A stretch of DNA of 64,000 nt, from assembly GCA_963828195.1 (NCBI GenBank), contig CAWHDT010000007.1, positions 256,001-320,000 on the forward strand, read 5' to 3'. The notes under the pieces are model-generated. The model searched no databases and was not told the DNA's origin. It was given only the letters and a program-made list of their open reading frames with translations. Numbering within the stretch: the first letter of the stretch is position 1; the number at the start of each line of letters is the position of its first letter. Below are positions 24,429 through 51,550 of the stretch, one piece after another. The translations under genes and the position numbers were made by a program. The DNA comes from Candidatus Bathyarchaeota archaeon (GTDB taxonomy: Archaea; Thermoproteota; Bathyarchaeia; Bathyarchaeales; Bathycorpusculaceae).

Positions 24429-25046
24429 CTATTTTTTGTTTTGTTGAACTATTAAGCGTTCAGCTAGTTGTAGTTCCTGTATTGTGTTGATGTTCACGGC
24501 TAATTCCTCGACGTCGAGTAGGTAGATGTCTTGGTCGAGCCATTCGTCCCCGTAACGTTTGTGCCCATCTATAACGTTGATGCCTACGGGAACCACGTCT
24601 TCTTCATACAGTTTAAACGAGTACTCAACGCACATGCCGAGTTTGGTTTTGGTTTTAAGGGGAACAGCTACGGTTAAAGCGGGTTTGCCGCAGCGCTCGT
24701 ACCGCTCAACGATAGAGTCCACCGCTTGAGCTGTCACGAGCGGAAGGTCTGCTGCGATAGCCAAGAAAACACCGAGTTTCAGGGTTTGCGCTGCGTAGCC
24801 CATGTCGGAAACATAATCTTTCCCAGGCGTTTCAACCACTTTCACTGGGAACTGGCTGAGGAACTTTGCGGTTTTGGGTGTGCAGTTGCTGACCGCTACA
24901 ACGATGGAATCGATTTTCTTGGCGTTCTTTAGCGCTTCAAGCACGTATTCGATAACGGGTTTGCCGCAGACTTTAATCAGCGGCTTCTCCTCCGCGAGTC
25001 GCATGCGTGTTCCTTTTCCGCCAGCCATGACAAGTGCCGTTACCGT
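24429..25046 (-). CDS. cobY: Adenosylcobinamide-phosphate guanylyltransferase CobY (copy 1)
   Basis: MAGGKGTRM..EKPL, ADLP and NINT motifs. The expected start position reads ACG at 25046, and the longer ORF start is a shadow of cobS. Confidence 0.88.
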   Translation of the reverse strand, partial: TVTALVMAGGKGTRMRLAEEKPLIKVCGKPVIEYVLEALKNAKKIDSIVVAVSNCTPKTAKFLSQFPVKVVETPGKDYVSDMGYAAQTLKLGVFLAIAADLPLVTAQAVDSIVERYERCGKPALTVAVPLKTKTKLGMCVEYSFKLYEEDVVPVGINVIDGHKRYGDEWLDQDIYLLDVEELAVNINTIQELQLAERLIVQQNKK

Positions 25047-25810
25047 ATAATCACCGCCAACAAAACAATTATGCACACCATTCTTGTCAACTCGTTGGTG
25101 GCGCCGAAGACGTCGCCTGTTACCCCGTTGAAGTGTCGATGTGCAATCGCAACCATAACTAAACCCGAAATTATCCCCGCTGAAACAACGAAAGCTCCTG
25201 CCCAACCTAACAGAGGGATAGCAACCGCTAAAGAAATCGCTATTGCGGCTATGAGGCGCAGGGTGCCTTTTCTTCCATGCATGGCTTCAAGGAAAGGGGA
25301 GTTCATGCCTTGGTGAACTGATCTTCCAGCCCGCGCCATAACAACCATGGAGAGCTTTGCTGAGGCTTCAACGGCGATGATGCCGCCGATTATCAGTGGG
25401 ATTTTGAATTCTCCGCTGCCTCCGACTTTTCCTATGGCTAAAGAAGTGATCAGCATGGTCATGATGCCTAATGATAAGCCGCCGGCGCCGGTGAACTGGT
25501 CATGCATAACCTCAATTTTGCGTTGGTATGTGCCAAGGACCATAACGCCGTCGCCGAAATCAAGTAACCCGTCGGTGTGATGAAGCCCCGTTATCAGAAG
25601 CAACATGGCTAAGACTAAGCCGCCTACAACTATGCTAGGTATAAACAGGGAAGCGACCCAGCCGAACACGCCTGCTAACAAGCCGATAAACGCGCCGATT
25701 ACAGGAAAAGCCCACATGCCGTTGGCGCAGTCAGTGAGCATGTTTTCATGTGTGGTTCTGCATAAAATTGTAAGGAAGGAACACAGGTTCTTTAACTCTC
25801 TAACAACCAA
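25040..25810 (-). CDS. cobS: Cobalamin synthase CobS (copy 1, canonical)
   Basis: SFLT, GLHHTDGLLDFGDG, MHD..TGAGG and GVTGDVFGA..E motifs. Confidence 0.92.
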   Translation of the reverse strand: MVVRELKNLCSFLTILCRTTHENMLTDCANGMWAFPVIGAFIGLLAGVFGWVASLFIPSIVVGGLVLAMLLLITGLHHTDGLLDFGDGVMVLGTYQRKIEVMHDQFTGAGGLSLGIMTMLITSLAIGKVGGSGEFKIPLIIGGIIAVEASAKLSMVVMARAGRSVHQGMNSPFLEAMHGRKGTLRLIAAIAISLAVAIPLLGWAGAFVVSAGIISGLVMVAIAHRHFNGVTGDVFGATNELTRMVCIIVLLAVIIR

Positions 25811-25817
25811 GCCAAAT

Positions 25818-26918
25818 TCACTTCAAGCCCATCAGCAAAGCATAATTACGCTCTATCTCCTTAAGCAATAAGTCTTTTGTTACTGCACCGCCAAGTTTAG
25901 CCATCGCCGCGATGGAAGCGCCGCCTGCGCCGACGCCTTCCTTCACAAGACCAGTCTCATATGTCCGCAAACCAGAGAAATGTGATGCCCCAAAGTTTAA
26001 GTCGGCGGCTAAAATCGGCACATCGCAGAACTGCGTAACTATGCCTTTTAGGTCAGATGACTTGTCTTTGGCAACCCACCTTGTTGTGCCCACCGCCACG
26101 TTGCAGAGAACATCGGGCTCCAAAGCGTTAATTACGGCTAAGATGGCGCTCATCTGTGTCCCGCCAGCCATCAACACGGGCACCTGCGATGCTGCACCAA
26201 TCACCAGCCCAGAGAAGGCAGCCATCATCGGGTCGCCGACGCATGAAATAGCTTTCGCTGGGTCTTTTGCTAAACTGCCGAAGCTTTCGCCTGCAGCCGC
26301 CAGCCCCGCCTTGACCGTTTCCGCCTTTAAGCTGTGCGGGTTTTCAGGCAGGGTGCTGCTTACTTTACCCTCCGCTTTGACGCCTAAAGCCGACAACACG
26401 CCAAGAGCGGTTGTTGTTCCCCCGGGAATACTCTCGCCTATGACGAGGTAATCAACTGCCTTAGCGAGTTGCTGCCCAGCAATTTTGGCTCTTTCAATAA
26501 CTTCCGAGGCATTGTCAACTGCGTTGCCGCTTCTGATATCTCGTCCGGGGCTTCCGCCGAGGTCTAAAAACGGAATTTGGGGTTTTACTTTTAATCCGCC
26601 GCTGGCAATCAAAACGGGGATATCTGCCAAGCGCAGAGCCGACATAGTTATCAACGCGGGTGTCGGAATGCCGTCGGGAGTGATGGGCACTCCGGCAATG
26701 GATTTGCATTTGCCAAGCAGAAGCAGTTCGGCATCCGCTGGCGGCGTGTAATCGGTGAATTCAGGGTTGGCTCCAGCCGCCGATATGCCGGAGATTTTGC
26801 CGGTTTCAGTGGTCGCAATTGTGCAGATGAAAAGTGGGTTTTTTCCTTCGATTTCTTCGAGAAAAGCTTTCGCTTTAAGCTCGTTATGCGCGATTATAAC
26901 GTCAAATGTCGTGGCCAT
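25818..26918 (-). CDS. cobT: Archaeal CobT (NaMN:base phosphoribosyltransferase, TIGR00303-like)
   Basis: GISAAGA, TPPADAE, GESIPGGTTTA and KEGVGAGG motifs. Confidence 0.92.
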   Translation of the reverse strand: MATTFDVIIAHNELKAKAFLEEIEGKNPLFICTIATTETGKISGISAAGANPEFTDYTPPADAELLLLGKCKSIAGVPITPDGIPTPALITMSALRLADIPVLIASGGLKVKPQIPFLDLGGSPGRDIRSGNAVDNASEVIERAKIAGQQLAKAVDYLVIGESIPGGTTTALGVLSALGVKAEGKVSSTLPENPHSLKAETVKAGLAAAGESFGSLAKDPAKAISCVGDPMMAAFSGLVIGAASQVPVLMAGGTQMSAILAVINALEPDVLCNVAVGTTRWVAKDKSSDLKGIVTQFCDVPILAADLNFGASHFSGLRTYETGLVKEGVGAGGASIAAMAKLGGAVTKDLLLKEIERNYALLMGLK

Positions 26919-26919
26919 T

Positions 26920-27606
26920 CTACGGTTTTACCTTGCCTTTCGGCTTAACTTCGAATTTCTTGATTTCTAAGTACCCGAAGCCGCCGTCAAGCTTATGCTT
27001 TTGCGTTTCAACAATTTCAATCTTCTTCTTAAAAGTCGGCCCGTCTGTCACCACAGTGTGGTATTCGCCGCCTTCTCCGCAAGCGTCAACGTTGCCGAGT
27101 TTTAGGATATCATCGTAAAATTTTCTGTCCAATGTTCGTCCAAGCCAATCTAGGCCTAACAGCTCCAGTTTAGTGCGCACTACGGTTGCTTTGAAACCCG
27201 TTTTTAGGTAGTCAAGGTAAATCTGTTTTGTGTCGCCCATCCAAAGAGGCTTTATCGGGGTTAAACCGACTTCTTTGAGCACTCGGCCAAGCCAGCCCTG
27301 CTCGTGACCCGCCACTTCGTAGATGTCTCCTGTAACTAGGCCTTCAGCGCCTTTTGCTTTGAAGCTGCGCAGTGCCCGTTTGAAATCGTTCTCGTAGGTT
27401 TCAGGCGTAGCTACCTGCTTTACAAGTGGAATTCCAATGGCGTCTGACTGCGCATCAAGTATGCCTACGGGTATCATGTGGAAATTCGATTTGGTTTCGC
27501 TCATCATCATAGTTAAAAGGTTGACAACCTCGTAGCCTTGTTGGGCTGCCAAATAATATGCATAACAACTATCTTTTCCGCCACTCCATGAAGCAACAAC
27601 TTTCAT
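26920..27606 (-). CDS. Diphthine-ammonia ligase (Dph6/MJ0570)-family ATP pyrophosphatase, copy 1
   Basis: SWSGGKDS PP-loop, TGDI, PLW and CGEGGEYHT motifs. First gene of the cobT-cobS-cobY operon. Confidence 0.88.
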   Translation of the reverse strand: MKVVASWSGGKDSCYAYYLAAQQGYEVVNLLTMMMSETKSNFHMIPVGILDAQSDAIGIPLVKQVATPETYENDFKRALRSFKAKGAEGLVTGDIYEVAGHEQGWLGRVLKEVGLTPIKPLWMGDTKQIYLDYLKTGFKATVVRTKLELLGLDWLGRTLDRKFYDDILKLGNVDACGEGGEYHTVVTDGPTFKKKIEIVETQKHKLDGGFGYLEIKKFEVKPKGKVKP

Positions 27607-28324: not shown

Positions 28325-28816
28325 TTGAAATTTATGAGCGAAGAAATGCCCGCGTTACTAGAGTTTCTGGAGCAAAAAGACATATCCCTAAAAAGCCTCA
28401 TTCACTGCGCACTTGAAATGTTTGTGCCTCACCCAGGCGTGGAAACTGAGGAAAAAGCGGTTGAAATGCTAAGAGAAGAATTCCTCGATGTCCTATCAGA
28501 CGTTAACGTTTCTATTCTTGAGGTCGCTGCTTTCCGAGCGCAGGAAGATGCCGAGAAAGGCTTGATTCCTGGGTTGACGCAGGAAAGGTTCAGGGGTAGA
28601 CCGGGGCCAGTCGCTGACGAAGTTTTAGGAATAGCGATCGCGAGCTACATCGGCGGAACCCGGGCAGTTTTCGAGTACGTGCGTTTTGACCAAGCCAAAC
28701 CGGGGATCCTCAAAAGACTCGGGTCAATAACAAACGATGCCATAGGTGCCTTAGTCGCAGGCGTATCGTCAAACGTTTATACACGCGCAACAAAAAACGC
28801 GCAGGCAAAGCCGTAA
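28325..28816 (+). CDS. cobZ: Alpha-ribazole phosphatase CobZ-type (PgpA-like) protein
   Basis: DVNV, VADEVLGIAIASYIGG, FDQAKPGIL motifs and cob-operon context. Confidence 0.8.
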   Translation: MKFMSEEMPALLEFLEQKDISLKSLIHCALEMFVPHPGVETEEKAVEMLREEFLDVLSDVNVSILEVAAFRAQEDAEKGLIPGLTQERFRGRPGPVADEVLGIAIASYIGGTRAVFEYVRFDQAKPGILKRLGSITNDAIGALVAGVSSNVYTRATKNAQAKP

Positions 28817-28958
28817 AAAACTTTTTCCGCCTATTTCTGAGCGGATAGATGTCACAGGTATGGATTAGCAGGCTAGGTTGCACAAATCAATGTTATTTTA
28901 GGTTTTTCCATAAGATTATAATAGTCTTTAGTTGAGGAGTTTAGTTAGTTGGGTTTCC

Positions 28959-30117
28959 ATGGTTCATACACGGCTTTGCATTGTTACTCACACCTTTCTG
29001 CCTCACACCGGCGGAATAGAAAGGGTTGTTTATGAACAGAGTAAGCGGCTGCTGAAGAAAAATTTTGAGCCTCTGGTTGTGACTAACCGAATTGATACAC
29101 CCAAAAACTACGTTGTTGACGGAATCAACGTTGAGTGCTACGAATCGTTAAATACGGGTTTTCGCTTGGGGATACCGTACTCGATTCCGTCGGTGACGAG
29201 TTTTGAAACTTTTCTTAAAGCTGTTAAATCATGCGATATAGTTCATGCGCATGGTCACCCGTACTTGACGTCGCTTGTCGCGGCTAAGCTTGCGAAGAGG
29301 TACAAAAAACCGTTTGTGTTAACGCAGCATAACACCTTCATTGAATACGACAGCTTCTTTGACGATGTAGAACGGTTAAATGACTTAGCCGTTGGAAAGG
29401 AGACGCTCAAAGAAGCCGACAAAATAATCACAGTAAGCAGCGCCACTAAAGATTATGTTTTAAGTTTAGGAGCAAAACCTGAGAAGATTAAGGTTTTACA
29501 TAACGGAGTTGACTTGGTTCGCTTCAGACCTTTGGCTGGAAAAAGAGAGGGAAATGCGCAGAACACTGGGAATCCCCCAAAACGCAATCGTGGTTTTAAC
29601 CGTTAGAAGACTCGTTTACAAAAACGGTATCGACACATTAATCGAAGGGGCAAACATAGCGGTGAAAAAGAACCCAAAAATTGTTTTCCTAGTTGTGGGG
29701 AAAGGACCCGACCTAAACAACGTTCAATTTAGGACACGGCAGCTTGGGATAGAAAACAATTTTAGGCTCACGGGTTTTGTAAAAGACGAAGATTTGCCGT
29801 TTTACTACAACGCAGCAGACTTTTTTGTGCTGCCGTCAAAATCAGGAGAAGGGTTGCCTTTGGTTGCGCTCGAAGCTATGGCTTGCGGACTGCCGGTAAT
29901 AGCGACAAACGTCGGAGGAATAAGGGAAGTTCTGATGGGTGATTATGGAAAATTAGTTCCCTCCAACCAGCCTTGGCTGCTTGCAAAAGCGGTTTTGGAA
30001 TTTTCCGATATGGATTTGTCTTCACGCAGAGTGGAGCTTCGAGCACTTGTGGAGGAAAAGTTTAGCTGGGACAAAAATGTTGAATCGCTCGTGGGGATAT
30101 ACGAAGAACTTATTTAA
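28959..30117 (+). pseudogene. GT4 glycosyltransferase split by a one-base frameshift
   Basis: N-half (GGIE, HAH, HNGVD) and C-half (RRLVYKNG, EGLPLVALEAMACG) join if one G is removed from GAGAGGGAAATG at ~29548-29551. Confidence 0.85.
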
Positions 30118-30158: not shown

Positions 30159-30896
30159 ATGACATCGAAGGTTGATCTGGTCTCGGTCGTAATTCCAACA
30201 CTCAATGAAGCAGGAAACATCTTGGAAGCTGTCACAACCATCTATAAAGAGTTGGAGTATCCGAAGGAGATAATTGTTGTAGATGGCAACTCCACTGACG
30301 GAACAATTGAAATCGTGAAAGACACAAACTTCTGCAAACTCATTATTGAACCCAGACGCGGCTACGGAGTCGCCCTTAGAACAGGCATGAAGTATGCGAA
30401 AGGAAACATCATCGTAATGGTGGATGGCGACGGCACCTACGAGGTGAGGCACATTAACCGTTTGCTGGACAGGATGATTCAGAAAGACGCGGACATGGTG
30501 TTAGCCACCCGCATGTATGACCCGGACAAAGCCATGGGATTCATGAATTTTTTGGGCAACAAAGTAATCACTTTCGTCTACGACTTCTTCTACAGCCAAT
30601 TCCTCAGCGACTCCCAATCGGGGTTCCGAGCAATCTCCCATGAAGCCATCGATAACGTTGAGTTAAAAGAGGGAGATATGGCTTTTGCAACTGAAATGCT
30701 GGTGCAGTTCGCTAAGGAAGGATACAACATGGTTGAAGTCCCCACAACCTACAAGTCGAGGAAATATGGGAAGACAAAACTTAAACCATTTAAGTCAGGT
30801 ATTGAGATATTTAGCACTATATTCAAGGGATTTCTCGATGCGGATACAGTTAGAACGTGTCAAAAGCATTGGAAGGAAAATCGGTTTAAACGATGA
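30159..30896 (+). CDS. GT2 glycosyltransferase (DPM1-like)
   Basis: VIPTLNE, VDGNSTDGT, DGDG and DSQSGFRA motifs. Confidence 0.9.
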   Translation: MTSKVDLVSVVIPTLNEAGNILEAVTTIYKELEYPKEIIVVDGNSTDGTIEIVKDTNFCKLIIEPRRGYGVALRTGMKYAKGNIIVMVDGDGTYEVRHINRLLDRMIQKDADMVLATRMYDPDKAMGFMNFLGNKVITFVYDFFYSQFLSDSQSGFRAISHEAIDNVELKEGDMAFATEMLVQFAKEGYNMVEVPTTYKSRKYGKTKLKPFKSGIEIFSTIFKGFLDADTVRTCQKHWKENRFKR

Positions 30897-31371
30897 AAAA
30901 GGCTACGCAGTCGCCGTTTTTCTCGCGTTAATAATTATATCTGCGTTAGCCGTGGGTTACTTTGTGTTTTTTAGGCCAGCGCCGTCGGGGTACAGCACAA
31001 TCTACGTGCTGGATTCACAAAACAAAGCTGCTAATTACCCCTCGGTTTTGGTTGCTAACCAGAACAGCACATTCAACACGCCCGTTTCCGTTGTTAACAA
31101 CGAGGGGTACACCGTTCAATACCAGGTTCAAGTGAAAATCAGCGATGACGTCACAACTTTTCCAGTAGATATTCAGCCCGTTGGAGTGTACAATTTCACG
31201 CTGGGAAATGGGCAAACCTGGCAAAAGTCAGTCTCAGTTACGGAGAATCAAGTTGGAAGCTACTCTGTTGTTTTTGAGCTCTGGCAGTATAATTCGGATT
31301 CAGGAGCTTACCAGTTCATAAATAACAATGCAGAAAACTATTGCGTCTTAAACATTCAAGTGGTAAGCTAA
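30838..31371 (+). CDS. DUF1616-like membrane-anchored protein
   Basis: TM helix, then IYVLD...AANYP, VVNNEG and VVFELW. The start is uncertain. Confidence 0.65.
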   Translation: MRIQLERVKSIGRKIGLNDEKGYAVAVFLALIIISALAVGYFVFFRPAPSGYSTIYVLDSQNKAANYPSVLVANQNSTFNTPVSVVNNEGYTVQYQVQVKISDDVTTFPVDIQPVGVYNFTLGNGQTWQKSVSVTENQVGSYSVVFELWQYNSDSGAYQFINNNAENYCVLNIQVVS

Positions 31372-32837
31372 GCCGTTTTATGCCTTTCAGCGTACGCTTT
31401 CTCTATGGCTACTCGGTGGATATTGTTGTATGCGCAGAAAGGTATGATTTTTTTGTCTGGCGTAATGTAGTGAACTACGCAGCGTCTAACCCGGTTAACG
31501 TCGAAGTTGTAGGAATCCATGAACGCCATACAGCCGAGGAGGAAAATGCGTCGCCGGATTTTTCCAAGCGATTGATATGAAGGCGAAAGATGCATTCGCA
31601 TAATTGATTTCGTTAAAGTTGGCATGCCGACTTCTTTGGTGACTTCAAGCATGTTCATAGAAAGCATCGAAGCCATGAATAGCGAGGAGAGCAAAGAAAA
31701 TTTGCCTTTTGACTCTGCGTTTTCAGCGGTCTTTCTGATGTAGTTAAAGAACCTGTCAAAGTTGACGAAACGGTTGATTGGGAACATTTGACCGTTTTTT
31801 GAGACATATATCCAGTTTACGATTCCGCATTGGGGGCTGCAGGAGAAAAGCGGCCAGGGTTTTTGCATGAATTTACGCATTATCTTTATGGGGGAAGTCA
31901 TAACCGACATGGGGTAAAGATCGGTTGTTTTTATTTCGCCGCCGGTTTGTTTTTCGACGTCCTCGGCAAAGGACCATTCGCGGAAATTTTCTCGGAAGGG
32001 GTTTTCCGTTGCTCTGCCAGTGAAGGCGATTGGCTGGAAAATTAAGCCGCGTACTATGTCGGTGTTCTTGGCTGCGAAACGTATCATGTCGCCGACTTCG
32101 TTATCGTTTAAGCTTTTCATTAAAGTGTTAACTAAGATGATTTCCATGTCGTATTTTCGGCAAACCTCAATGGCCTGCAGCTTCTGTTTTACCAGGTTGT
32201 CTTGTCCTCTGATCTTTTTGTTGAATTCTTCGTGGAAACTGTCAAACGATAAATAAACGATGTTTAAGCCGCTGTCTTTTAGCTTCTTTGCAAGCTCCGG
32301 AGTGTCAACCAGATGTGTCCCATTGGTCGCCAATATGGTCATAAACTTTAGTTTGTGCGCGGCAGCGATTATTTCAGGCATATCCTCCCGCTCAAGGGGT
32401 TCGCCGCCTGAAAAAAGGATGGCTGGCGGCTTGGGGTTTGCTTTGCTTACGAACTCAAGCATATCTATGAGCGCTTCTTTGGTCGGCTCATAATCGACTT
32501 CTTGCGCTGGAAAAGTCGAGAAGCAAACGGCGCATTTGAAGTTGCATCTTTTTGTGACGTCAATTACGCCTATGACGGTGCCTGAGGCATGGTTGGTGCA
32601 TGTTTCGCAAACGTAGGGGCAGCCTTGTGGGTCTTTGGGAGCGTTCAAATCGCCAAGGTACTGGAATTGGTCGTAGGTTTGCATGTGGTTATAGATGTCT
32701 GTGCTTTGCCAGTGGGTGGCTTCAAAGGTTCCATGTTCGGGGCAAGTCTTTGTGATTTTTATTTTTCCGCTGGCTTGCGTTATCTGAGCGTCTATTTTTT
32801 TCTGGCATTCAGGGCAGACGCTTTTGGTTTTGGTCAT
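31368..32837 (-). CDS. tes: Tetraether lipid synthase Tes (GDGT-MAS) family radical SAM
   Basis: N-terminal CPEC...CPEHG rubredoxin site, GCPYVCETCTNH, CNFKCAVC, and C-terminal C..CG, CM.FMDSYNFD.NRVRRCVVHY, PFCAYN. Confidence 0.88.
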   Translation of the reverse strand: MTKTKSVCPECQKKIDAQITQASGKIKITKTCPEHGTFEATHWQSTDIYNHMQTYDQFQYLGDLNAPKDPQGCPYVCETCTNHASGTVIGVIDVTKRCNFKCAVCFSTFPAQEVDYEPTKEALIDMLEFVSKANPKPPAILFSGGEPLEREDMPEIIAAAHKLKFMTILATNGTHLVDTPELAKKLKDSGLNIVYLSFDSFHEEFNKKIRGQDNLVKQKLQAIEVCRKYDMEIILVNTLMKSLNDNEVGDMIRFAAKNTDIVRGLIFQPIAFTGRATENPFRENFREWSFAEDVEKQTGGEIKTTDLYPMSVMTSPIKIMRKFMQKPWPLFSCSPQCGIVNWIYVSKNGQMFPINRFVNFDRFFNYIRKTAENAESKGKFSLLSSLFMASMLSMNMLEVTKEVGMPTLTKSIMRMHLSPSYQSLGKIRRRIFLLGCMAFMDSYNFDVNRVRRCVVHYITPDKKIIPFCAYNNIHRVAIEKAYAERHKTA

Positions 32838-33715
32838 AGTAACCCTCCAAGTGTTGCCTCGATTATTAATGCTAGCGGAAGAAGAATCATTGACATGGTG
32901 ACTATTCGCTCATATTTTCGCACGTTTTGCAGTGTTGACGCTGAGGATACAAGGCAGATTGAACAGTAAATTAGAAGGATACTCCAGAGAAGAATGGGCG
33001 GCAAATAGTAAATTGTGAATTTGCCTATGAAGTAGGGAAGAGGAGCCAGCAGCCCAGTTAACGTGAAAAATAGAGCTGCCAACTTCACCGAGTTGCTGAT
33101 GCCGATTTTCTTGGGGAGGGTTGGGTACCCAGTTTTTGCGTCGCCGTCAAGACTCAGGACGTCTCGCAGGACGTTGCCGCCTATTGTTCCAAAAGCTATC
33201 GGGTAGAGGCTTAAAGAAATCAAGCTTACAGTCGGAGGTGCAGTGATGGTGGCTTCCCCAAACATGAAGGCCGTGCCCGTCAAAACGCCAACCAAAACAT
33301 TGGCCGCGAAGCCTGATTTGCGCTTGACAAGGGTTGAGTAAATTATAAGCAGCAGGGAATCCGCCGCGATGATTGTGAAGCTCAGCAGGTTAATGTAAGA
33401 AGCCATGATAAGGCCTACAGTGAAAAGCACGCCTGAGATGGCTACTACCTGCTTTAGCGACAGCGCACCTGAGGGTATAGGGCGTTTAGGCTTGATTACT
33501 GCGTCGCTTTCTCTGTCGAAGTAATCGTTGATTGCGAATCCAGCCGATGTTATGAACGCCATGGAAAAGAAAACCAGCAAATCCGTCTGTATGCTTAGGC
33601 CAAGGGGGTTTTTGGTGATGGCGAAAGCTGTTAAAAGAGATAATCCGCCAGTCATCAGCCAGTAGGGAAGCCTCAAAAGCGCGATTAAGCCTCTAGCTGG
33701 CGCCGAGGCAGCCAT
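32834..33715 (-). CDS. UbiA-family prenyltransferase, DGGGP synthase-like
   Basis: INDYFDRESD..KPKRPIPSG motif and multiple TMs. The second acidic motif is degenerate (NVLRDVLSLDGD). Confidence 0.85.
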   Translation of the reverse strand: MAASAPARGLIALLRLPYWLMTGGLSLLTAFAITKNPLGLSIQTDLLVFFSMAFITSAGFAINDYFDRESDAVIKPKRPIPSGALSLKQVVAISGVLFTVGLIMASYINLLSFTIIAADSLLLIIYSTLVKRKSGFAANVLVGVLTGTAFMFGEATITAPPTVSLISLSLYPIAFGTIGGNVLRDVLSLDGDAKTGYPTLPKKIGISNSVKLAALFFTLTGLLAPLPYFIGKFTIYYLPPILLWSILLIYCSICLVSSASTLQNVRKYERIVTMSMILLPLALIIEATLGGLL

Positions 33716-34656
33716 TACGAAATTTTCCTCTCAGCGATAATTGCTTTTATGCTGTCTTCAAGGCTAACCTTGGGATTCCAATTCAGCTCTTTTTTTGCTT
33801 TGGAGTTGTCGAACCAAATTTTTGTAACGTCGCCTTGCCAAGAAACATTGGTTGTGGTTATAAATGTCCTGTCTTGGAAGTTGAGGATTTTAAGCATCAT
33901 TTTGGCAAGGTCTATTATCGTGATTGTCGTTCCAAAGCCAATGTTGTAGGTTTTACCAGTAGTAGAATCTTCTGAACCGACTGTTACCAGAGCATCAACC
34001 ACGTCGGATACGTGTACAAAATCGCGTGACTGCAATCCAGTGCCGATGATTTCGAGTTTCTCGGGGTTTTTAGCGAGTTTGTCCAGAAAATCGTGGATGA
34101 CGCCGTGGCACCTTGACCCGTAAACGTTGGCAAACCTCATTATTGTTATGTCTAAGCCGTATTGGCTTTGGTACATTTGACAGTATTCTTCGCCGACGAC
34201 TTTGGATAATCCGTAGCATGAAAAAGGGTGAAACCCATATTCTTCTGGCGTGGGAAAAACCGTTGGGTTGCCATAGACTGCTGCGCTGGAAGCGAAAACC
34301 AGTTTTGCATCGTCTTTGCGTGCTTTCTCAAGAACCTGCACGGTTCCTTTAGCGTTTGTTTCAAAATCTATCATGGGATTCTCCATCGAGTAAGGAACCA
34401 CAACTTGGGCGGCTAAATGATAAATTAAATCCTGCTTCTCCAAGGAAAGAAGCTTTTTTGGATCCAAAATGTCGCCTTTGACGAATTTGGCTTTCGGGAC
34501 GTCTTGCACGTTTTCCTTTGTGCCGCTTGACAAGTTATCGTAAGTTGTCAAGTTAGAGGTCAAATCTGAAAGCTTCGTGCACAGGTGAAAGCCGATAAAA
34601 CCTGCGCCTCCAGTGACCAGAATTTTTTTCCCCGTAAGTTCCCCCATGTAATTCAC
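33715..34656 (-). CDS. NAD-dependent nucleotide-sugar epimerase/dehydratase (GalE-like)
   Basis: TGGAGFIG, SSAAVYG, YGLSK and RDFVHVSD motifs. Confidence 0.92.
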   Translation of the reverse strand: MNYMGELTGKKILVTGGAGFIGFHLCTKLSDLTSNLTTYDNLSSGTKENVQDVPKAKFVKGDILDPKKLLSLEKQDLIYHLAAQVVVPYSMENPMIDFETNAKGTVQVLEKARKDDAKLVFASSAAVYGNPTVFPTPEEYGFHPFSCYGLSKVVGEEYCQMYQSQYGLDITIMRFANVYGSRCHGVIHDFLDKLAKNPEKLEIIGTGLQSRDFVHVSDVVDALVTVGSEDSTTGKTYNIGFGTTITIIDLAKMMLKILNFQDRTFITTTNVSWQGDVTKIWFDNSKAKKELNWNPKVSLEDSIKAIIAERKIS

Positions 34657-34694
34657 GACAAAGTCTATATTATATTTAGTCAGTTGTAGGGTAT

Positions 34695-37737: not shown

Positions 37738-37739
37738 GG

Positions 37740-41745: not shown

Positions 41746-41750
41746 CTTGC

Positions 41751-42449
41751 TTAAACCCTCATGTAAGCTGAAACTATCGATAGGAGAATTTTGAAGCCGT
41801 CAACCATCGGGTCAACTCCAGAACGACCGTAGGTCCGCTGCTCAAAGCTTATCGGAACCTCTGTGACTCTAAATTTTTTTTTGGCGGTTTTTACAAGCAT
41901 TTCGGACTCTATCTCATACCCGCCTGACTTTAGCTTTGGGGTTTTCACCACTTCCCTTTTCATGGCGCGGTAGCCTGATTGAGAATCAGTTATGGCCACT
42001 CCGGTTAGCATCTGGATGAAATAGTTGAATATTCGCACGCCAAAAGCGTTGAGTCGCCGTGCAGCCACGCGCTTGTGATTTAGATATCTTGAGCCGATAA
42101 CGAGGTCCGCCTTGTCTTGCATAATGGGCGCAAGCACTTTCGGAAGCTCTTCAGGTTCATGTGAGCCGTCGGAGTCTATTGTGACTATTATGTCACCTTT
42201 TGCTTTGGCGAAACCTGCACGCAACGCATAGCCTTTGCCCATGTGCTTTTTTAAAGTGTAGATTTTAGCGCTGTGTTTTTTAGCTAAGTCCAGCGATTTA
42301 TCGCGTGAGCAGTCATCTACAACTATAACTTCGTTTTTTAAGCCTGTTTGCTGCGCCACCGTTTTTACACGGTCGATTATGTTGCCTATGGTTAATTCCT
42401 CGTTGTAAACGGGAATTATTATGGAAAGCAGCATTTTCTCTTGGCTCAT
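41751..42449 (-). CDS. GT2 polyprenol-phosphate glycosyltransferase (DPM1-like)
   Basis: IPVYNEE, VDDCSRD, GKG.A, DSDGSH and DSQSGYRA motifs. Confidence 0.9.
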   Translation of the reverse strand: MSQEKMLLSIIIPVYNEELTIGNIIDRVKTVAQQTGLKNEVIVVDDCSRDKSLDLAKKHSAKIYTLKKHMGKGYALRAGFAKAKGDIIVTIDSDGSHEPEELPKVLAPIMQDKADLVIGSRYLNHKRVAARRLNAFGVRIFNYFIQMLTGVAITDSQSGYRAMKREVVKTPKLKSGGYEIESEMLVKTAKKKFRVTEVPISFEQRTYGRSGVDPMVDGFKILLSIVSAYMRV

Positions 42450-42533: not shown

Positions 42534-43088
42534 ATGGAAACCACTACGCAAAGCAAAGTTGGCTACGACAGGAAAATGTGGTTTTCCATGTGGTTCTTGG
42601 CGGCGATTGTTACTTTTGGAGTGGCGTTTTTCCCAATGTTCTACCGCCTCGTTAACGGCAGAAACAAGCATTTTCGGCATGAAGTTGAGTTTGAGAAAAC
42701 GGTTACTGATTACTTGAAAACCAAGGGAAAGCAGCCGCCGCTGGTAAGCGAGCGTTTTGCAGAAAGAAATGCAGGGGTGTGGGCTGTCAGCATCGTTTTG
42801 GTAGTTCCAGTTTTTGTTATCGTTTACTTGCTATCCAGAGATTTACTTGTGCATGAGCGAAACCAAGACGCTTTTCTTGCCGCTGCTTTTCCAGAAAGGA
42901 TGTTCATGACTCAGAAGATACCGATAAAAACTTATGTTTTAATCACAGTTGTTACGTTGGGCGTGGGGGTCGTTTACTGGCTGTATAAGGTTGTTAACTT
43001 GTATAACGCTCACTTTAAAGCTCAGTTGCAGGTTGAATTAGAAGCAGGTAGGCTGATGGAGGAAGAGAAAGTTGGCGGACAAATGTAA
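42534..43088 (+). CDS. Membrane protein (DUF4234-like)
   Basis: Duplicated VTFGV/VTLGV..YWLYK...N.HF units. Confidence 0.65.
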   Translation: METTTQSKVGYDRKMWFSMWFLAAIVTFGVAFFPMFYRLVNGRNKHFRHEVEFEKTVTDYLKTKGKQPPLVSERFAERNAGVWAVSIVLVVPVFVIVYLLSRDLLVHERNQDAFLAAAFPERMFMTQKIPIKTYVLITVVTLGVGVVYWLYKVVNLYNAHFKAQLQVELEAGRLMEEEKVGGQM

Positions 43089-44193
43089 AGAACGCAGATT
43101 CATTAGCCATGGCGGAGACATTTGGGGTTTTAGCCGAAAATACAATGTGCCACTTGAAGAAGTGCTTGAGTTCAGCGGACCAATCAATTTTCTGGGTCCT
43201 TCGCCTAAAGCTGTTGAAGCTGTGAAGCAATATGCAAAGTTGATAAAGTTCTACCCTGACCCTAACCCAGTTGAGTTTAAAGAAGAAGTTGCAAAGTACG
43301 TGGGCAACGGCGTTGAAGAAGAAAACATCATTTTAGGCAACGGCTCAATCGAGCTGATTTACGCGATTTCAGAGATTTTACCCCGCGGCTTCAACGCGGT
43401 TATTCCAGTTCCCTCATTCTCGGAGTATGAGAGAGCAGCTTTAAGAGTCGGCAGCAAACCGGTTTTTGTTCAGTTGCCCCAAAATTTTGCGTTGGAAACC
43501 GAGAAAATCAAGAAGGCGGTAACTGGCGACACAAAAATAATGTGCATCTGCAACCCGCACAGCCCCTCGGGAACGCTGTACAGCAAAGAAGCGGTTTTGG
43601 AGCTTGTGGATTTCTGCCACAAAAAAGACATAATCTTTAGCGTCAACGAGAACTACATCGAGTTTGCAGATAAAGGACAAGAAACCACTTTAGCTGGCTT
43701 GACAAAGGAGTACGAGAATCTCTTTGTTATCAGGTCGGTGACAAAATTTTACGGCATGGCAGGCATACGCTTAGGCTACGGCATAGCAGCGCCAAACCTG
43801 GTTGAGAAGCTGGAAAACGTTAGGCTGCCATGGAGCATCAACGGCCTCGCAAGCTGCGCCACGCTTGCAGCGTTCAACGACGCCGACTTCATCGAAAACA
43901 CCAAGAAAACAATCGCCAAAGAACGTGCAACCCTCGCAGAGAGCCTAGGCGAAATTGAAGGCTTACACGTTTATCCGTCCGTAACAAATTTTCTGCTCGT
44001 AAAAATCCAAAACCGCAAAATCACATCCACCAAACTGAAAGATGAGCTTGCTCAGCGCCGCATGTTAATCCGCGACTGCTGCACCTTCATGGGTTTAGAC
44101 GACACCTACTTCAGAATAACAGTTCGATCAGCCAAAGACAACAAAAAACTAACAGAAACAATAAAAGAAATTCTTGAAAAAACCGAACACTAA
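43072..44193 (+). CDS. cobD: Threonine-phosphate decarboxylase CobD / HisC-family PLP enzyme
   Basis: HGG..., YPDP, GNGSIE, CNPH and RSVTKFYGMAGIRLGY motifs, plus cob context. Confidence 0.8.
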   Translation: MADKCKERRFISHGGDIWGFSRKYNVPLEEVLEFSGPINFLGPSPKAVEAVKQYAKLIKFYPDPNPVEFKEEVAKYVGNGVEEENIILGNGSIELIYAISEILPRGFNAVIPVPSFSEYERAALRVGSKPVFVQLPQNFALETEKIKKAVTGDTKIMCICNPHSPSGTLYSKEAVLELVDFCHKKDIIFSVNENYIEFADKGQETTLAGLTKEYENLFVIRSVTKFYGMAGIRLGYGIAAPNLVEKLENVRLPWSINGLASCATLAAFNDADFIENTKKTIAKERATLAESLGEIEGLHVYPSVTNFLLVKIQNRKITSTKLKDELAQRRMLIRDCCTFMGLDDTYFRITVRSAKDNKKLTETIKEILEKTEH

Positions 44194-48020: not shown

Positions 48021-49133
48021 CTAAGCTTTTTTGGAGATTGGTTTTTTCGGTTTGGATAGTCTCTCGTGGGCTTGGTCTAGCATTTTGGTTATGGGCACTT
48101 TGTAGGTGCATTTTGGCTCGCATACGCCGCATTTGGTGCAGTTGTCAACTTTGACTGAAAGTCGCTCGTAAACCTCTCGGGTCCAATCTGTTATTCCATA
48201 GTAAGTGAAGTATTTGTCGAGTCCAAGTATCAAAGGTATGTTCAAGCCTTCTGGACAACGCAGACAAAGATCACATTCTCGACAGAAAGGTTCTGGAGGC
48301 AACTCGCCGAATCTAAGATCAGCTTTTTCTTTTGCGGTCAAACCTGTGAAATTCTCGCCGACCTTCGCAGCGGATTCAACTTCCCCTATGTTGCTGAAAC
48401 CTGAAATGGCTGTGGCAACGTCATGCGCTAAAACGTATTTGAGCGCGCGTTCAGTCATGATTTTTCCTTCGCCGAAGATACGGATGAATTCGGCTTTTTC
48501 AGGCACTATCTTTGCCAACTCATGCTGCACGAACCGCATGTTTGGTCCTCCGAAGGGTTTCATCGCAACCACGCCGACATCTAGCTTCTTGGCGAGAGGT
48601 AACAGCTCCTCGGTTGCCTCGCGGTTAATGATGTTGAATGGAGCAAGAATCATGTCGAATTCGCCGATCTGAACCGCTTTTGCTAAAATGTGGGGTCTGT
48701 GACCTGAAACCCCGATGAAGTTAAGCTTGCCCTGCGATCGGAGTTCTTTGAGGACAGAAAGTGCGCTTTTTTCTTCAATGACCTGCTTTAATGTTCTTTC
48801 GTTGTCGATGTGTTGAAGTATGACTATATCGACATGGTCGGTCCGAAGTTTATGCAAACTCTGCTTTATATCAACACGAGCAGCGTCAAGATCAAATAAA
48901 TGGTACGTTTTAGTGGTGATTACCACTTCGTCTCTGACATCTTCCAAAGCTATGCCAACTTTCTCCTCGCTGTTACCATAAATGCGTGCAGTGTCAAAGT
49001 ATGTGACTCCTAAGTCATAGGCACGTCTTAGCATCGCAACTGCGTTCTCCACGCTCTCTGGAACAATCCATTCTCCGCCAAACCCAATAACTGAAACGTC
49101 GAGATTAGTTCTTCCAAGTCGCCGCTTTTTCAT
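48021..49133 (-). CDS. Aldo/keto reductase with C-terminal 4Fe-4S domain
   Basis: LGRT...S.IGFG, FDTARIYG.SE and MKPFGG motifs, with CRECDLCLRCP and CTKCGVCEPKC. Confidence 0.92.
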   Translation of the reverse strand: MKKRRLGRTNLDVSVIGFGGEWIVPESVENAVAMLRRAYDLGVTYFDTARIYGNSEEKVGIALEDVRDEVVITTKTYHLFDLDAARVDIKQSLHKLRTDHVDIVILQHIDNERTLKQVIEEKSALSVLKELRSQGKLNFIGVSGHRPHILAKAVQIGEFDMILAPFNIINREATEELLPLAKKLDVGVVAMKPFGGPNMRFVQHELAKIVPEKAEFIRIFGEGKIMTERALKYVLAHDVATAISGFSNIGEVESAAKVGENFTGLTAKEKADLRFGELPPEPFCRECDLCLRCPEGLNIPLILGLDKYFTYYGITDWTREVYERLSVKVDNCTKCGVCEPKCTYKVPITKMLDQAHERLSKPKKPISKKA

Positions 49134-49404: not shown

Positions 49405-50109
49405 ATGAAGGTTGCTGCTTTCTGGGGTGGGGGCAAAGAATGCTGCTTAGCATATTACAAGGCGACAAAGCAGGGTCACGACGTTACGTTTCTTTTGACA
49501 TGGAAGTACATGGAACCGTACGTTTTCCACAGCCTTCCAATTATGGAGATGCAGTCCAAGGCCATGAGGACGCCTCAAGTCAAAGTTGAGATTAAAAATC
49601 TTAAAGATCCCATTCAAGAAATGCATGACGCCCTCGCTCGTCTAAAAAAAGAGACCGGAATCGAAGGCATCGTAACAGGCGACATCACCGGGGTGGGATG
49701 CGCTCAAGTGCACTCTGCCTATTATGAACCTATGTGCGAGGATTTAGGCATTAAATTAGTTATGCCAATTGTGAATCCTTCAGGAAATACTTACGACGTT
49801 TTAAAAGAGGAAATATCTTCAGGTCTGCACCCCATCATGAACTGCGTAAACTCGGCTTTCTTTAGCGAAGAATGGTTAGGTCGGGAACTCAACGAAGAAT
49901 CCATCAAGGAATTAAAGGAGCTTACCGAGAAACATGACATAGGCGTCTGCAGCGAATTTGGAATAGGCTACCACACAATGGTTTTAGATGCGCCGTTCTT
50001 TAAAGAAAGGCTTGAAATCAGCAAGTTCAGCAAAGAAGTTTACCACGAAAAGAAGAGATCCTGGCTTTACTTGAACAGCAAAGAGGTTCTGCTAAAACCA
50101 AAAAAATAG
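49405..50109 (+). CDS. Dph6/MJ0570-family protein, divergent copy 2
   Basis: WGGGKEC (degenerate PP-loop), VTGDI, WLGR and CSEFGIGYHT.VLDAP.F motifs. Confidence 0.8.
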   Translation: MKVAAFWGGGKECCLAYYKATKQGHDVTFLLTWKYMEPYVFHSLPIMEMQSKAMRTPQVKVEIKNLKDPIQEMHDALARLKKETGIEGIVTGDITGVGCAQVHSAYYEPMCEDLGIKLVMPIVNPSGNTYDVLKEEISSGLHPIMNCVNSAFFSEEWLGRELNEESIKELKELTEKHDIGVCSEFGIGYHTMVLDAPFFKERLEISKFSKEVYHEKKRSWLYLNSKEVLLKPKK

Positions 50110-50146
50110 TTTTTTGACAAGTCCGTCTATCAAAAACCTAACACTT

Positions 50147-51550
50147 TTATTTGCGGCGAAACTGTTCACAACCTTTGATGAAGTTTTGGGCGAATTCTTT
50201 GCTAAATGCGAAGTCAAGGTGCCCGAGCAATGCAAGACTGTTGTATTCCATTAACCCTTCATGTTTTCCATCTATTCCTTTGCCTATCTGCATCTTGAAG
50301 GCAAACCGAGAATCTTTAGGAACCTCTGGAATCTTTGAAAAGTGATACTCGTGTCCGTGAATAACTTTTCCTGTATGAGTCAATAAATTATCGTTGATTG
50401 TCTCCATAAGAGTTGAATCCAGTGCCTGAAGCCTCTTATCCATCAAGGCTTTTCCTGGAAGCGCCCCAACCATGGAAAAAACCGATCCGTCAAAGTTCGT
50501 TATCGATTCCGCCAAATACAGAGTCCCGCCATGTTCGCTATACGTTGGCAGTCCATCTTCAATGGCATTTTTGATGCTTTTCCTCATCGTTTGGTTTTCG
50601 GCAAGTTTATCTGCTAACACATCAGGGAAGCCACCTGGAAAGTATAAACCGTCAAGATCTGGCGGCAATTTTTTGTCATGCATAGGGCTGAAAAACAATG
50701 TTTCTGCTCCGTATGCCCTAAGAAGATCAATATTTTCCTGATAATAAAAATTGAAAGCTTCATCAAGTGCCAAGCCCAATCTAACTTTTTTCTCCTTCGG
50801 CTGAAGCGGATAAACTTCGTTGACTATAGTGGGCAGTTCCTCCGCATTTTTGGCTATGTCAAGTATTTTGTCAGTGTCAATGCGTTCGCCAACATATTCA
50901 ACAAGCTTAGCAAGAGTTGTCTTCAATGTTTCTCTTTGAGAAATCGGAATAAGTCCGCCAAGCCTGGTGGGTAAGAAGATTTCCTCGCTGAAGGGAATCA
51001 CGCCAAATACAGGCACCTTCGTGTTTGATTCAACAGTTTGTTTCATCCATTCTGCCTGTGTCTTACTTCGTACATTGTTCAGGACGACGCCTTTGACTTT
51101 TACTTTTTCGTCAAACGACTCGAAACCATGAACAACGGCGGCGGCATTCATGCGCATGCCAGTAACATCTAAAACCAAAATAACATCTGCCTTCAAGATT
51201 TTGGCTATCTGCGCGGTGCTTCCAAAATCCTGTAGACCATCAATCTCGCGTGTCAGACCGTCGAAGAGCCCCATAAATCCCTCAATCACGGCTACGTCAG
51301 CGTCTATGCAGGAGTTCTCGAAAATCTCTAACACCGTTCGCGGCGATGTGAGCCAAGGATCCAAGTGCATTGAAGGTCTTTTGGCAACTTCTGTGTGATA
51401 GCCTGCGTCAAGGTAGTCTGGACCTACTTTGAAGGGTTGAACCTTAAGTCCCCTTTTCCTAAAAGCCCCCATTACTCCTGTGGCAACTGTTGTTTTACCG
51501 CCCTCGCCATAAAGGCCTGCAATAACGACTCGAGGAATGTTCATTCTCAT
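50147..51550 (-). CDS. cbiA: Cobyrinate a,c-diamide synthase (CbiA/CobB) family, GATase Cys substituted
   Basis: GKTT, FKVGPDYLD, IEGFMGLFDG, AFNFYY and GHEYH motifs. YSEHGG replaces YAECGG. Confidence 0.88.
   Translation of the reverse strand: MRMNIPRVVIAGLYGEGGKTTVATGVMGAFRKRGLKVQPFKVGPDYLDAGYHTEVAKRPSMHLDPWLTSPRTVLEIFENSCIDADVAVIEGFMGLFDGLTREIDGLQDFGSTAQIAKILKADVILVLDVTGMRMNAAAVVHGFESFDEKVKVKGVVLNNVRSKTQAEWMKQTVESNTKVPVFGVIPFSEEIFLPTRLGGLIPISQRETLKTTLAKLVEYVGERIDTDKILDIAKNAEELPTIVNEVYPLQPKEKKVRLGLALDEAFNFYYQENIDLLRAYGAETLFFSPMHDKKLPPDLDGLYFPGGFPDVLADKLAENQTMRKSIKNAIEDGLPTYSEHGGTLYLAESITNFDGSVFSMVGALPGKALMDKRLQALDSTLMETINDNLLTHTGKVIHGHEYHFSKIPEVPKDSRFAFKMQIGKGIDGKHEGLMEYNSLALLGHLDFAFSKEFAQNFIKGCEQFRRK

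Follow-up and report, generated by a model that had tools for sequence, protein, structure and literature searches.

A conserved Bathyarchaeial gene island combines a divergent tetraether synthase paralogue with late cobamide genes and a second, divergent CobS

A 64,000-nt stretch of the genome of a Candidatus Bathyarchaeota archaeon (assembly GCA_963828195.1, contig CAWHDT010000007.1, positions 256,001 to 320,000 of the forward strand; hereafter the window) carries, at positions 24429–51550, a block of ~27 genes in which a divergent paralogue of tetraether synthase (Tes2), a UbiA prenyltransferase, glycosyltransferases and B12-binding radical S-adenosylmethionine (SAM) enzymes are interleaved with genes of late cobamide synthesis, among them a divergent paralogue of the cobalamin-5′-phosphate synthase CobS (CobS2). 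We find that this block is a conserved island that behaves as one heritable unit and not a chance juxtaposition of genes; what we observe are the identities of the genes, their paralogy, their conservation, their operon structure and their joint loss. Our leading explanation, held tentatively and at slightly less than even confidence, is that the island serves in lipid tailoring and brings along late cobamide genes to supply its B12 enzymes, together with a divergent CobS2 that is not redundant with the standard enzyme.

Results

Architecture of the block and genomes compared

Gene families in the window were called from a listing of its open reading frames (ORFs) using Pfam and the curated cut-offs of NCBIfam (Table 1). 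The window's own genome (G000, 2.83 Mb in 9 contigs, labeled C) was searched with the window proteins and with family models, and comparison was extended to 41 related genomes (24 of them in the window's genus) and to a class-wide sample of 401 genomes. A scan of 185,579 species genomes by CobS2 motif and alignment yielded 209 relatives, of which the best 80 were examined; 55 of these loci are of full length, and in counts over these 55 the figures for glycosyltransferases, CobZ, CobD′ and the left-hand cob operon are limited by the 10-kb flanks retrieved. Gap statistics derive from 106 loci, some of which represent one genome reached twice.

Every class of gene claimed for this block by the original prediction, which was made from the window's letters, is present by Pfam and NCBIfam. 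From left to right, a minus-strand operon (dph6-like#1–cobT–cobS1–cobY1) is followed on the plus strand by genes for a CobZ/PgpA-like phosphatase, a GT4 glycosyltransferase, an AglJ-like GT2 and a DUF1616 membrane protein; then come galE-like, ubiA and tes2 (minus strand, stops and starts overlapping) and cobS2–cobY2 (plus strand, 4-nt overlap); a radical SAM/SPASM gene overlapping one for a DUF362 protein, a HepT/MntA pair and GT4b–GT2b–GT2c (minus strand); and finally h184 overlapping a CobD-like gene, two B12-radical SAM genes, an aldo/keto reductase (AKR) with a 4Fe-4S domain, Dph6-like#2 and CbiA. The DUF1616, DUF362, h184 and AKR–4Fe-4S proteins are block members beyond the inventory first proposed.

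The tes2 operon and the facing cobS2–cobY2 pair

The galE–ubiA–tes2 operon is tightly packed (tes2–ubiA gap −4 nt in 106/106 loci, ubiA–galE gap −1) and faces cobS2–cobY2, itself translationally coupled (cobS2–cobY gap −4 in 105/105 loci). The divergent galE and cobS2 genes are separated by a median of 39 nt, and by ≤60 nt in all 99 loci of family f1. CobS2, unlike members of known late cobamide sets, shares a divergent promoter region with the operon of a tes paralogue. In family f7 the divergent layout is not kept; there cobS2–cobY2 lies downstream of tes2, past two opposite-strand genes and within 2–5 kb of it.

Tes2 is 38–41% identical to canonical Tes, which the same genome encodes on C1 (666.5 bits). 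Its residues 3–482 align with residues 24–504 of PDB 7TOL over the full length (E 2.5e-111), and it keeps the N-terminal zinc ribbon (PF23545), the radical SAM CxxxCxxC motif (PF04055) and further Cys motifs. In full-length homology, motifs and passage of the NCBIfam cut-off Tes2 therefore resembles the Tes/GDGT-MAS enzymes (M. jannaschii MJ0619, PDB 7TOL; M. acetivorans MA_1486), but differs from them in being a second, divergent copy that is found in two families only, always beside a UbiA paralogue and CobS2. Orthologues share 81–91% identity within the genus (most full-length ones 84–91%) and 45–47% in family f7. Second Tes copies also exist in methanogens, where their function is unclear; MA_1114 gave only trace macrocyclic archaeol, according to PMC8941075.

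Three proteins of the genome resemble digeranylgeranylglyceryl phosphate synthase (DGGGPS), and the UbiA of the block diverges most among them, the other two (on C5 and C8) scoring 295 and 233. It shares with DGGGPS its best-matching models and the first NDxxDxxxD motif, whereas it falls under all of the curated cut-offs and has a rearranged second Asp motif (in 8/8 module copies aligned). Taken with the Gms-like protein described below, the Tes2 and UbiA homologies make a lipid-core function likely, in keeping with the lipid-tailoring system originally proposed. We considered whether the module might replace the CarS/CDP-alcohol route and rejected this, as CarS and two CDP-alcohol transferases are both present in the genome.

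CobS2 meets the Pfam cut-off for its family (PF02654, 83.5 bits) while missing the NCBIfam equivalog threshold. Alignment reveals 26 columns that are invariant across both standard (S1) and divergent (S2) sequences, an insert of ~20 aa in CobS2, and a substitution of the last Asp of the HxDGxxDxGD motif, which is Asn in 13/13 S2 and Asp in 5/5 S1 sequences. The two types form separate clades (approximate likelihood ratio support, SH-aLRT, 100 each) with the longer stem (1.16) leading to S2, and the S2 sequences of family f7 are sister to those of family f1. A sequence search of the PDB with CobS2 returned no match. CobY2 aligns with M. jannaschii CobY (3RSB/2MZB; E ~1e-15) and keeps the N-terminal GTP loop; both it and CobY1 score below the TIGR00454 cut-off, and the CobY tree splits into Y1 and Y2 types as the CobS tree does. 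In two genomes (G008, G006) the CobY beside CobS2 is of Y1 type and that beside CobS1 is only 32–35% identical to CobY1, the two CobY types having swapped places. Altered catalytic motifs, which the original prediction had claimed for several of the enzymes, are indeed present in CobS2 (DxGD to DxGN, plus the insert), UbiA (second Asp motif) and Dph6-like#2 (SGGKDS to GGGKEC); the motifs of Tes2, CobD′ and CobY2 turn out to be intact.

Conservation of the island

Tes2-like genes (E ≤1e-118) occur in 76 of the 401 class genomes, namely in 65 of the 103 genomes of family f1, in 10 of the 18 of family f7 (these ten all of one genus) and in the window's own genome, and were found in none of the other 279 of the 401. 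Among the 41 relatives, all 24 genus members carry a Tes2 orthologue (E ≤1e-40), the full-length ones lying ~2 kb from CobS2, and 23 have a CobS match, most of them two, with the two CobS genes 9–43 kb apart; other families of the order have canonical Tes only and no CobS, with the exception of G040, a complete genome of family f7. At 20 further loci from 13 genera, UbiA and CobS2 stand beside Tes2 in 20/20, CobY2 in 19/20 and the GT4–GT2a–DUF1616 run in 19/20, with GalE absent from four (genera g24, g46 and g47). In the 55 full-length CobS2 loci GalE, UbiA and Tes2 are each present in 55/55, and 48/55 have a CobY2-type best match.

The best 80 of the 209 relatives found by CobS2 motif are all labeled as, or resemble, Bathyarchaeia (titles include peat, soil, termite gut and “Bathycorpusculum”). 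Two island contigs with 64–71% CobS2 identity (L068, L110) were deposited as “Limnocylindrales bacterium” and “Methanocella sp.”; they are probably misbinned Bathyarchaeial contigs.

G040 holds, at 38–55% identity and within one 16-kb stretch, the Gms-like protein, GT4b, GT2b, GT2c, h184, CobD′, CobY2, CobS2, Tes2, UbiA, GalE, DUF1616 and GT4, in an internal order that differs from that of family f1. Further left lie CbiA, the AKR–ferredoxin protein, six B12-radical SAM enzymes, CbiB′ with an Amidohydro_3 protein, methyltransferases and an RnfD–ferredoxin fusion; no DUF362 protein was detected in this genome. Conversely, G413 (a single contig, same genus as the window) is without Tes2, CobS2, CobY2 and CbiB′, shows no close orthologue of any of the cluster B12-radical SAM enzymes, and has an ordinary cob cluster (CobT–CbiB–CobD ... 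Dph6-like#1–CobS1–CobY1–CbiA).

The juxtaposition of lipid and cob genes, whose absence from relatives had been named in advance as the finding that would speak against the original prediction, is thus conserved in two families, where the block behaves as a unit. The genomes compared are nonetheless kin, representing at most two independent lineages, and one may ask whether ordinary lipid, glycosylation and cobamide genes are simply neighbors, placed so by chance or through common descent within one genus. The relatives are close, with many loci from one genus, the order and spacing of sub-blocks vary (as in the 9–43 kb between CobS genes), and a toxin–antitoxin pair has been inserted into the block; we nevertheless consider this explanation very improbable, given a second family with the same gene set at 38–55% identity in another order, gene overlaps inside the sub-operons in ~100 loci, and the joint loss of all parts in G413. 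The inserted pair, HepT/MntA of type VII, lies between the DUF362 and GT4b genes, and its rarity in related loci (MntA-like matches in 4/55, HepT-like in 3/55 full loci) indicates that it is a recent insertion into the island.

The second cobamide set in reduced genomes

The cob genes of the block had been described as duplicated, which holds for part of them. As judged by homology, the true second cobamide set is CobD′, CbiB′ (encoded on C4 in the window's genome), CobY2 and CobS2, whereas CobT, CobS1, CobY1, CobZ, Dph6-like#1 and CbiA are only copies or lie in ordinary clusters, and are therefore not dedicated duplicates.

CobD′ of the window falls just short of the CobD cut-off (290.55), which its orthologues in G040 and G364 pass with 299 and 301 bits. 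It matches S. enterica CobD (1LC5) at E 1.3e-44, aligning at the HGG N-terminal motif and the pyridoxal phosphate (PLP) lysine that we take to be diagnostic of CobD; an assignment as a real HisC was rejected, the HisC of this genome adjoining HisD at C7:165625. CobD′ is found in 38/55 full loci and is the sole CobD of G040, G404, G347 and G407. Contig C4 encodes a separate CobD–CbiB pair and, in addition, CbiB′ beside an Amidohydro_3 gene. CbiB′ passes both CbiB cut-offs (TIGR00380 235 against 165.9, NF002281 278.8 against 273), and the CbiB tree comprises a canonical and a prime clade, each with members of both families. The Amidohydro_3 partner (~520 aa) is paired with CbiB′ both in the window's genome (C4:15147–18044, L136:2147–5044) and in G040 (L134:6583–9219), with one B12-radical SAM homologue between the two in G003 and G014; by analogy with CbiZ it could be an amide-cleaving partner.

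The most informative genome for the role of this set is G347 (1.4 Mb, 97% complete), which retains the module. It encodes CbiZ (a 350-aa frame), CobT, CobS1, CobS2, CobY2 and an adjacent CobD′ and CbiB′, and a search of it found none of CbiC, CbiA and CobQ, nor any CbiB, CobD or CobY of canonical type. This complement matches the archaeal cobinamide salvage route as listed in PMC8305020. CobY2 is the sole CobY in G040 and G347, and CbiB′ the sole CbiB in G347 and G407. Because CobD′, CbiB′ and CobY2 serve as sole copies in reduced genomes, their simplest role is on corrinoids, which the scores of CbiB′ and of the CobD′ orthologues above cut-off and the exchanged CobY types also favor; the families are those of the archaeal late cobamide pathway (CbiZ, CobD, CbiB, CobY, CobS, CobT, CobZ), with motifs mostly intact. 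A scheme in which CobD′, CobY2 and CobS2 are all lipid head-group enzymes of a Kennedy-like GDP route was downgraded on the same grounds of sole CobD, CobY and CbiB′ copies in reduced genomes.

CobS2 behaves differently. It is the only member of the second set never found as a sole copy; G347, G402 and G405, the reduced genomes examined, have both CobS types, as does G040, and this retention beside CobS1 where all else is pared down implies non-redundant roles for the two CobS enzymes. Surplus cob genes next to B12-dependent pathways are known, to go by the titles of PMC3621897 and PMC3403914; unlike in those cases, the users here are lipid-type radical SAM enzymes, and a divergent CobS accompanies the standard one in every carrier examined. 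The original prediction had offered either a dedicated cobamide or co-opted cob paralogues: the reduced genomes favor a corrinoid role for CobD′, CbiB′ and CobY2, which leaves CobS2 alone as a candidate for co-option and places it between the two.

CobS enzymes react an alcohol with a GDP-activated phosphate, GMP being the leaving group. A co-opted CobS2 would no longer finish a cobamide; receiving its substrate from CobY, with CobD′ and CbiB′ perhaps acting before CobY, it would instead put a phosphodiester-linked group on the (glyco)lipid that UbiA, Tes2 and the glycosyltransferases produce. Two donors can be envisaged: adenosylcobinamide-GDP itself, which would give a lipid-anchored corrinoid, or a carboxylate other than a corrinoid (a uronic acid, for example) to which an amino-alcohol phosphate is attached through an amide. 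The close divergent pairing of cobS2–cobY with galE–ubiA–tes2 in family f1 (and their 2–5 kb proximity in f7) is what such a role would lead one to expect, as are the retention of CobS2 beside CobS1 in 1.3–1.5-Mb genomes with a single CobD, CbiB and CobY, the invariant Asp-to-Asn exchange, insert and long stem branch, the loss of CobS2 along with Tes2 in G413, and the rarity of CobS2-motif relatives (185,579 species genomes yielded only 209, of which the best 80 are labeled as Bathyarchaeia or resemble them). There is also a precedent for redeployment of a cob-type enzyme, in that a CobD-like decarboxylase of Campylobacter jejuni (Cj1436) supplies ethanolamine phosphate for amide decoration of capsule glucuronate. 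Set against this, CobS2 keeps nearly all of the CobS family invariants, its partners CobD′, CbiB′ and CobY2 resemble working corrinoid enzymes and are the sole ones of salvager genomes, the divergent-promoter layout is not kept in family f7, the genome has an ordinary CarS and CDP-alcohol head-group route, and no known lipid bears such a group. We regard co-option as possible but somewhat unlikely overall. That CobS2 is specifically a lipid head-group transferase, moving the GDP-activated intermediate of CobD′, CbiB′ and CobY onto the membrane-spanning (glyco)lipid of UbiA and Tes2 by a phosphodiester, we hold to be unlikely on present homologies; if true, it would define a new archaeal polar lipid class, at its extreme a membrane-anchored corrinoid that would serve membrane-bound B12-radical SAM enzymes.

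Two observations concern other cobamide genes of G040. A standard-type CobS stands alone beside a B12-binding-domain protein and an MtrH-like methyltransferase (L137:6042–8343), and a CbiZ–CobZ fusion is encoded close by.

Radical SAM enzymes of the island

The Gms-like radical SAM/SPASM protein combines an AhbD-like core with an N-terminal extension of 117 aa that contains four Cys residues and is unique to it, the other AhbD-like paralogues of the genome aligning only from residue ~110. Its gene is present in 51/55 full loci, at a median of 176 nt from cobY, and overlaps the DUF362 gene (gap −29 in 66/66 loci), which is itself present in 44/55. An AhbD-like core with an N-terminal extension of ~100 aa, and clustering of gms with gmm, are described for Gms in PMC11214058, and bioRxiv 2025.10.20.683597 reports a Bathyarchaeial B12-radical SAM enzyme as a proven tetraether desaturase. 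The block is comparable to these systems (Gms with Gmm, GrsA/B, Ted) in possessing the AhbD-like core with extension and in its clustering with B12-radical SAM genes; the likeness is one of architecture and clustering as described. A protein search with the Gms-like sequence returned only close relatives without a name, and the window's genome has at least 12 B12-radical SAM paralogues. For the two B12-radical SAM enzymes of the block, the best curated matches are BchE and HpnJ, both below cut-off.

These two enzymes and CbiA lie at the right-hand end of the block, and we considered them unlinked to the module until extended flanks were compared, upon which that view was rejected. Close B12-radical SAM homologues flank the module in eight genomes (G217, G400, G375, G411, G389, G349, G412, G040), and the extended flanks of six same-genus genomes and one of genus g21 carry B12-radical SAM homologues, some with the AKR or Dph6-like#2, which links the right-hand part of the interval to the island. 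The AKR–4Fe-4S architecture is likewise found beside B12-radical SAM genes in G040, and homologues of Dph6-like#2 (52–58% identity) lie beside such genes in G217, G411, G349 and G003. CbiA has a homologue at the edge of the G040 block (52%) and another within the ordinary cob cluster of G413 (45%).

Ordinary cobamide genes

The dph6L1–cobT–cobS1–cobY1 genes form one operon (gaps of 0 and 7 nt, then an overlap), whose last ORF overlaps cobS1 by its first ~54 codons, making an internal start for cobY1 probable. CobS1 falls in the S1 clade (SH-aLRT 100) and CobY1 in the Y1 clade; cobS1 is also found in the module-less G413. CobT is single copy (one in this genome, one each in 8/8 relatives searched), and neither it nor CobZ nor either CobS/CobY pair has copies elsewhere in the window's genome. 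This left-hand operon is present in 32–37 of the 55 full loci, and the cobZ-like gene, upstream of the GT4–GT2a–DUF1616 run at a median of 142 nt from GT4, in 41/55. Dph6-like#1 has an intact SGGKDS PP-loop and is a constant member of the cobT–cobS1 operon, including that of G413, and may represent an unrecognised step of archaeal cobamide assembly; both block Dph6-like proteins miss the TIGR03679 cut-off (197.3), which the true Dph6 on C5 passes with 283.9 bits.

The CbiA of the block passes a second synthase model (NF002204, 439 against 254) and misses the CfbB exception model (436 against 560). The sole other CbiA-like gene of the genome encodes a PRK06278-type protein in the corrin cluster of C8, the contig that holds the de novo corrin genes. 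The only CobQ/CbiP match (C5:353212–354944, outside the window) contains one TAA stop and lies next to a 31-aa fragment 87% identical to Dph6-like#1; both may be cobamide genes in decay or artefacts of misassembly. G003, a same-genus genome complete in one contig, gave no GATase_3 match of CbiA or CobQ type above ~27 bits, whereas the window's genome has both; members of one genus appear to differ in cobamide capacity, from de novo synthesis in some to salvage in others.

Glycosyltransferases, membrane proteins and small ORFs

The glycosyltransferase sets are present in 42–47 of the 55 full loci. GT2a and DUF1616 are each found in 47/55, the latter in family f7 too; the listed DUF1616 ORF overlaps GT2a, and its true start is therefore probably downstream. 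The GT2c–GT2b–GT4b operon (gaps 5 and −3) occurs in 42/55 full loci and is 42–51% identical in G040, and h184, a three-pass membrane protein 32% identical in G040, overlaps cobD′ with a median gap of −17. The window's GT4 is broken into two ORFs by a frame switch which, judged against intact orthologues, lies between 29542 and 29576 in a stretch holding A5 and C5/A4 runs. A naturally split GT4 was rejected, the gene being intact in relatives (a single 387-aa ORF in G040; a different break in G003), and the window copy is a pseudogene, or else its break is an assembly error at a homopolymer.

These genes also permit a reading in which the glycosyltransferases, DUF1616 and GalE make an N-glycan, S-layer glycan or lipoglycan on a UbiA/Tes2 carrier lipid and not a bulk lipid, with the cob and B12-radical SAM genes neighbors merely by descent. 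The nearest families for GT2a (164 bits) and GT2c (170 bits) are AglJ and the dolichyl-phosphate hexose transferases, and GT4 matches include Agl16, albeit with AglJ and Agl16 scores all far under their cut-offs; DUF1616 is found repeatedly in the vicinity, as is a DUF6541 membrane protein, and canonical Tes, DGGGPS, CarS and CDP-alcohol transferases already serve the bulk lipids. Characterised members of the Tes and Gms families act, however, on diether or tetraether cores, and the B12-radical SAM and cob genes are lost along with the block in G413, leading us to find an envelope glycan distinctly doubtful as the product of the island.

Two small ORFs have no family match. h112, with two predicted transmembrane segments, has 31–43% identical paralogues on C3 and was not seen at related loci; h123, of which C5 encodes a paralogue at 51% identity, recurs beside Dph6-like#2 in 7/55 loci.

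Table 1. Features of the gene block, in window coordinates. Bit scores are followed by the curated cut-off where one applies.
Feature	Position	Strand	Evidence
cobY1, adenosylcobinamide-phosphate guanylyltransferase-like	24429..25205	-	TIGR00454 146 bits (<175); NF045495 124 bits
cobS1, standard-type cobalamin-5′-phosphate synthase	25040..25810	-	TIGR00317 147.6 bits (passes 110)
cobT, archaeal type	25818..26918	-	TIGR00303 395 bits (passes 240)
Dph6-like ATP pyrophosphatase #1	26920..27606	-	TIGR03679 140 bits (<197.3)
h112, small ORF	27952-28290	-	no family match
CobZ/PgpA-like phosphatase	28325..28816	+	TIGR03161 118.6 bits (<152.5); Pfam PgpA 21 bits (<28)
GT4 glycosyltransferase (ORFs 28932-29606, 29509-30117)	28932..30117	+	N and C domains in different frames
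GT2a, AglJ/dolichyl-phosphate-hexose-transferase-like GT2	30159..30896	+	TIGR04182 164 bits (<325)
DUF1616 membrane protein	30685..31371	+	PF07760 56 bits
tes2, divergent tetraether synthase (GDGT-MAS family) paralogue	31368..32837	-	NF045702 467.4 bits (passes 450)
ubiA, DGGGPS-like prenyltransferase	32834..33715	-	PRK12884 171 bits (<269); PRK12882 163 (<296)
galE-like, NAD-dependent epimerase/dehydratase, first gene of galE–ubiA–tes2	33715..34656	-	PF01370 188 bits; TIGR01179 172 (<262)
Divergent intergenic region between galE and cobS2, 38 nt	34657..34694	.	one AT-rich TATA-like element, tatattatattta
cobS2, divergent CobS paralogue	34695..35525	+	TIGR00317 99.9 bits (misses 110)
cobY2, guanylyltransferase coupled to cobS2	35522..36142	+	TIGR00454 115 bits (<175)
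Gms-like radical SAM/SPASM	36319..37737	+	TIGR04545 307 bits (<500), residues 118-466
DUF362 protein	37710..38699	+	PF04015 170 bits
HepT/MntA type VII toxin–antitoxin pair	38751-39523	-	
GT2c–GT2b–GT4b operon (41751-42449, 40756-41745, 39560-40759)	39560..42449	-	Pfam, NCBIfam
h184, membrane protein	42534..43088	+	faint DUF6693 similarity
cobD′, CobD-type PLP decarboxylase paralogue	43072..44193	+	TIGR01140 277.7 bits (<290.55)
h123, small ORF	44272-44643	+	no family match
Two B12-binding radical SAM enzymes	44749-46182, 46428-47813	-	PF02310 + PF04055
AKR fused to 4Fe-4S dicluster domain	48021..49133	-	PF00248 + PF13534
Dph6-like protein #2	49405..50109	+	TIGR03679 110 bits (<197.3); PP-loop GGGKEC
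cbiA/cobB-type a,c-diamide synthase	50147..51550	-	TIGR00379 449 bits (passes 261)

Discussion

We infer the chemical steps, each of them, and the two products of the island from the families of its enzymes. In the explanation that we tentatively prefer, this lineage-specific island would build and tailor an additional membrane-spanning isoprenoid ether (glyco)lipid. The DGGGPS-like UbiA would form a prenyl ether, Tes2 would join chain ends tail to tail in the manner of GDGT-MAS, and the Gms-like enzyme, with the DUF362 protein, would cross-link the chains; the B12-radical SAM enzymes and the AKR–ferredoxin protein could then methylate, desaturate or cyclise these, and GalE and the five glycosyltransferases would add sugars. 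The late cobamide genes of the lineage would be carried on the island as a cofactor supply for its many B12-radical SAM enzymes: CobD′ would provide an amino-alcohol phosphate, CbiB′ would link this to cobyric acid and CobY2 would guanylylate the product, with CobT, CobS1 and CobZ completing an ordinary cobamide. CobS2 would also use a GDP-activated donor of this type but link it to another acceptor, yielding a second corrinoid form.

Several points weigh against this explanation. Tes2, UbiA and the Gms-like protein are not B12-dependent, yet it is with their operon that cobS2–cobY shares its 39-nt divergent region, whereas a pure link of supply and demand would predict the cob pair beside the B12-radical SAM genes. 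CobS enzymes tolerate many lower ligands, so that a second CobS would not be required merely for another base. CobS2 itself misses the CobS equivalog cut-off and combines an invariant Asp-to-Asn exchange with a long stem branch. Finally, the block is carried by two families only, and its conservation may stem from one ancestral event.

Some elements of this picture are known already, namely second Tes copies in methanogens, the clustering of Gms with B12-radical SAM enzymes and a Bathyarchaeial B12-radical SAM desaturase. Among the products suggested in the original prediction (methylated or butanetriol tetraethers, or a novel glycolipid), butanetriol tetraethers are reported in a review as a marker of another Bathyarchaeial genus, Baizosediminiarchaeum. 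The island would be a further lipid-modification cluster, here with a cofactor supply, and contains two uncharacterised paralogue clades, Tes2 and CobS2; our literature searches returned no report connecting a CobS paralogue to Tes or to lipid genes.

In sediments, peat and soils, few uncultured archaea are as abundant as the Bathyarchaeia; their lipids are sought as biomarkers, with few of their lipid genes tested. The island offers a defined, conserved and portable lipid gene set (galE–ubiA–tes2, the Gms-like and DUF362 genes, five glycosyltransferases and several B12-radical SAM genes), which could be expressed in those archaeal hosts that have served for Tes, Gms and Ted, and it sets apart a second clade of Tes. 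For cobamide biology, it presents a full late pathway that has been duplicated or reshuffled around lipid enzymes in one lineage. That CobS2 is never dispensed with in the carriers examined points to either a new corrinoid form or a new CobS chemistry.

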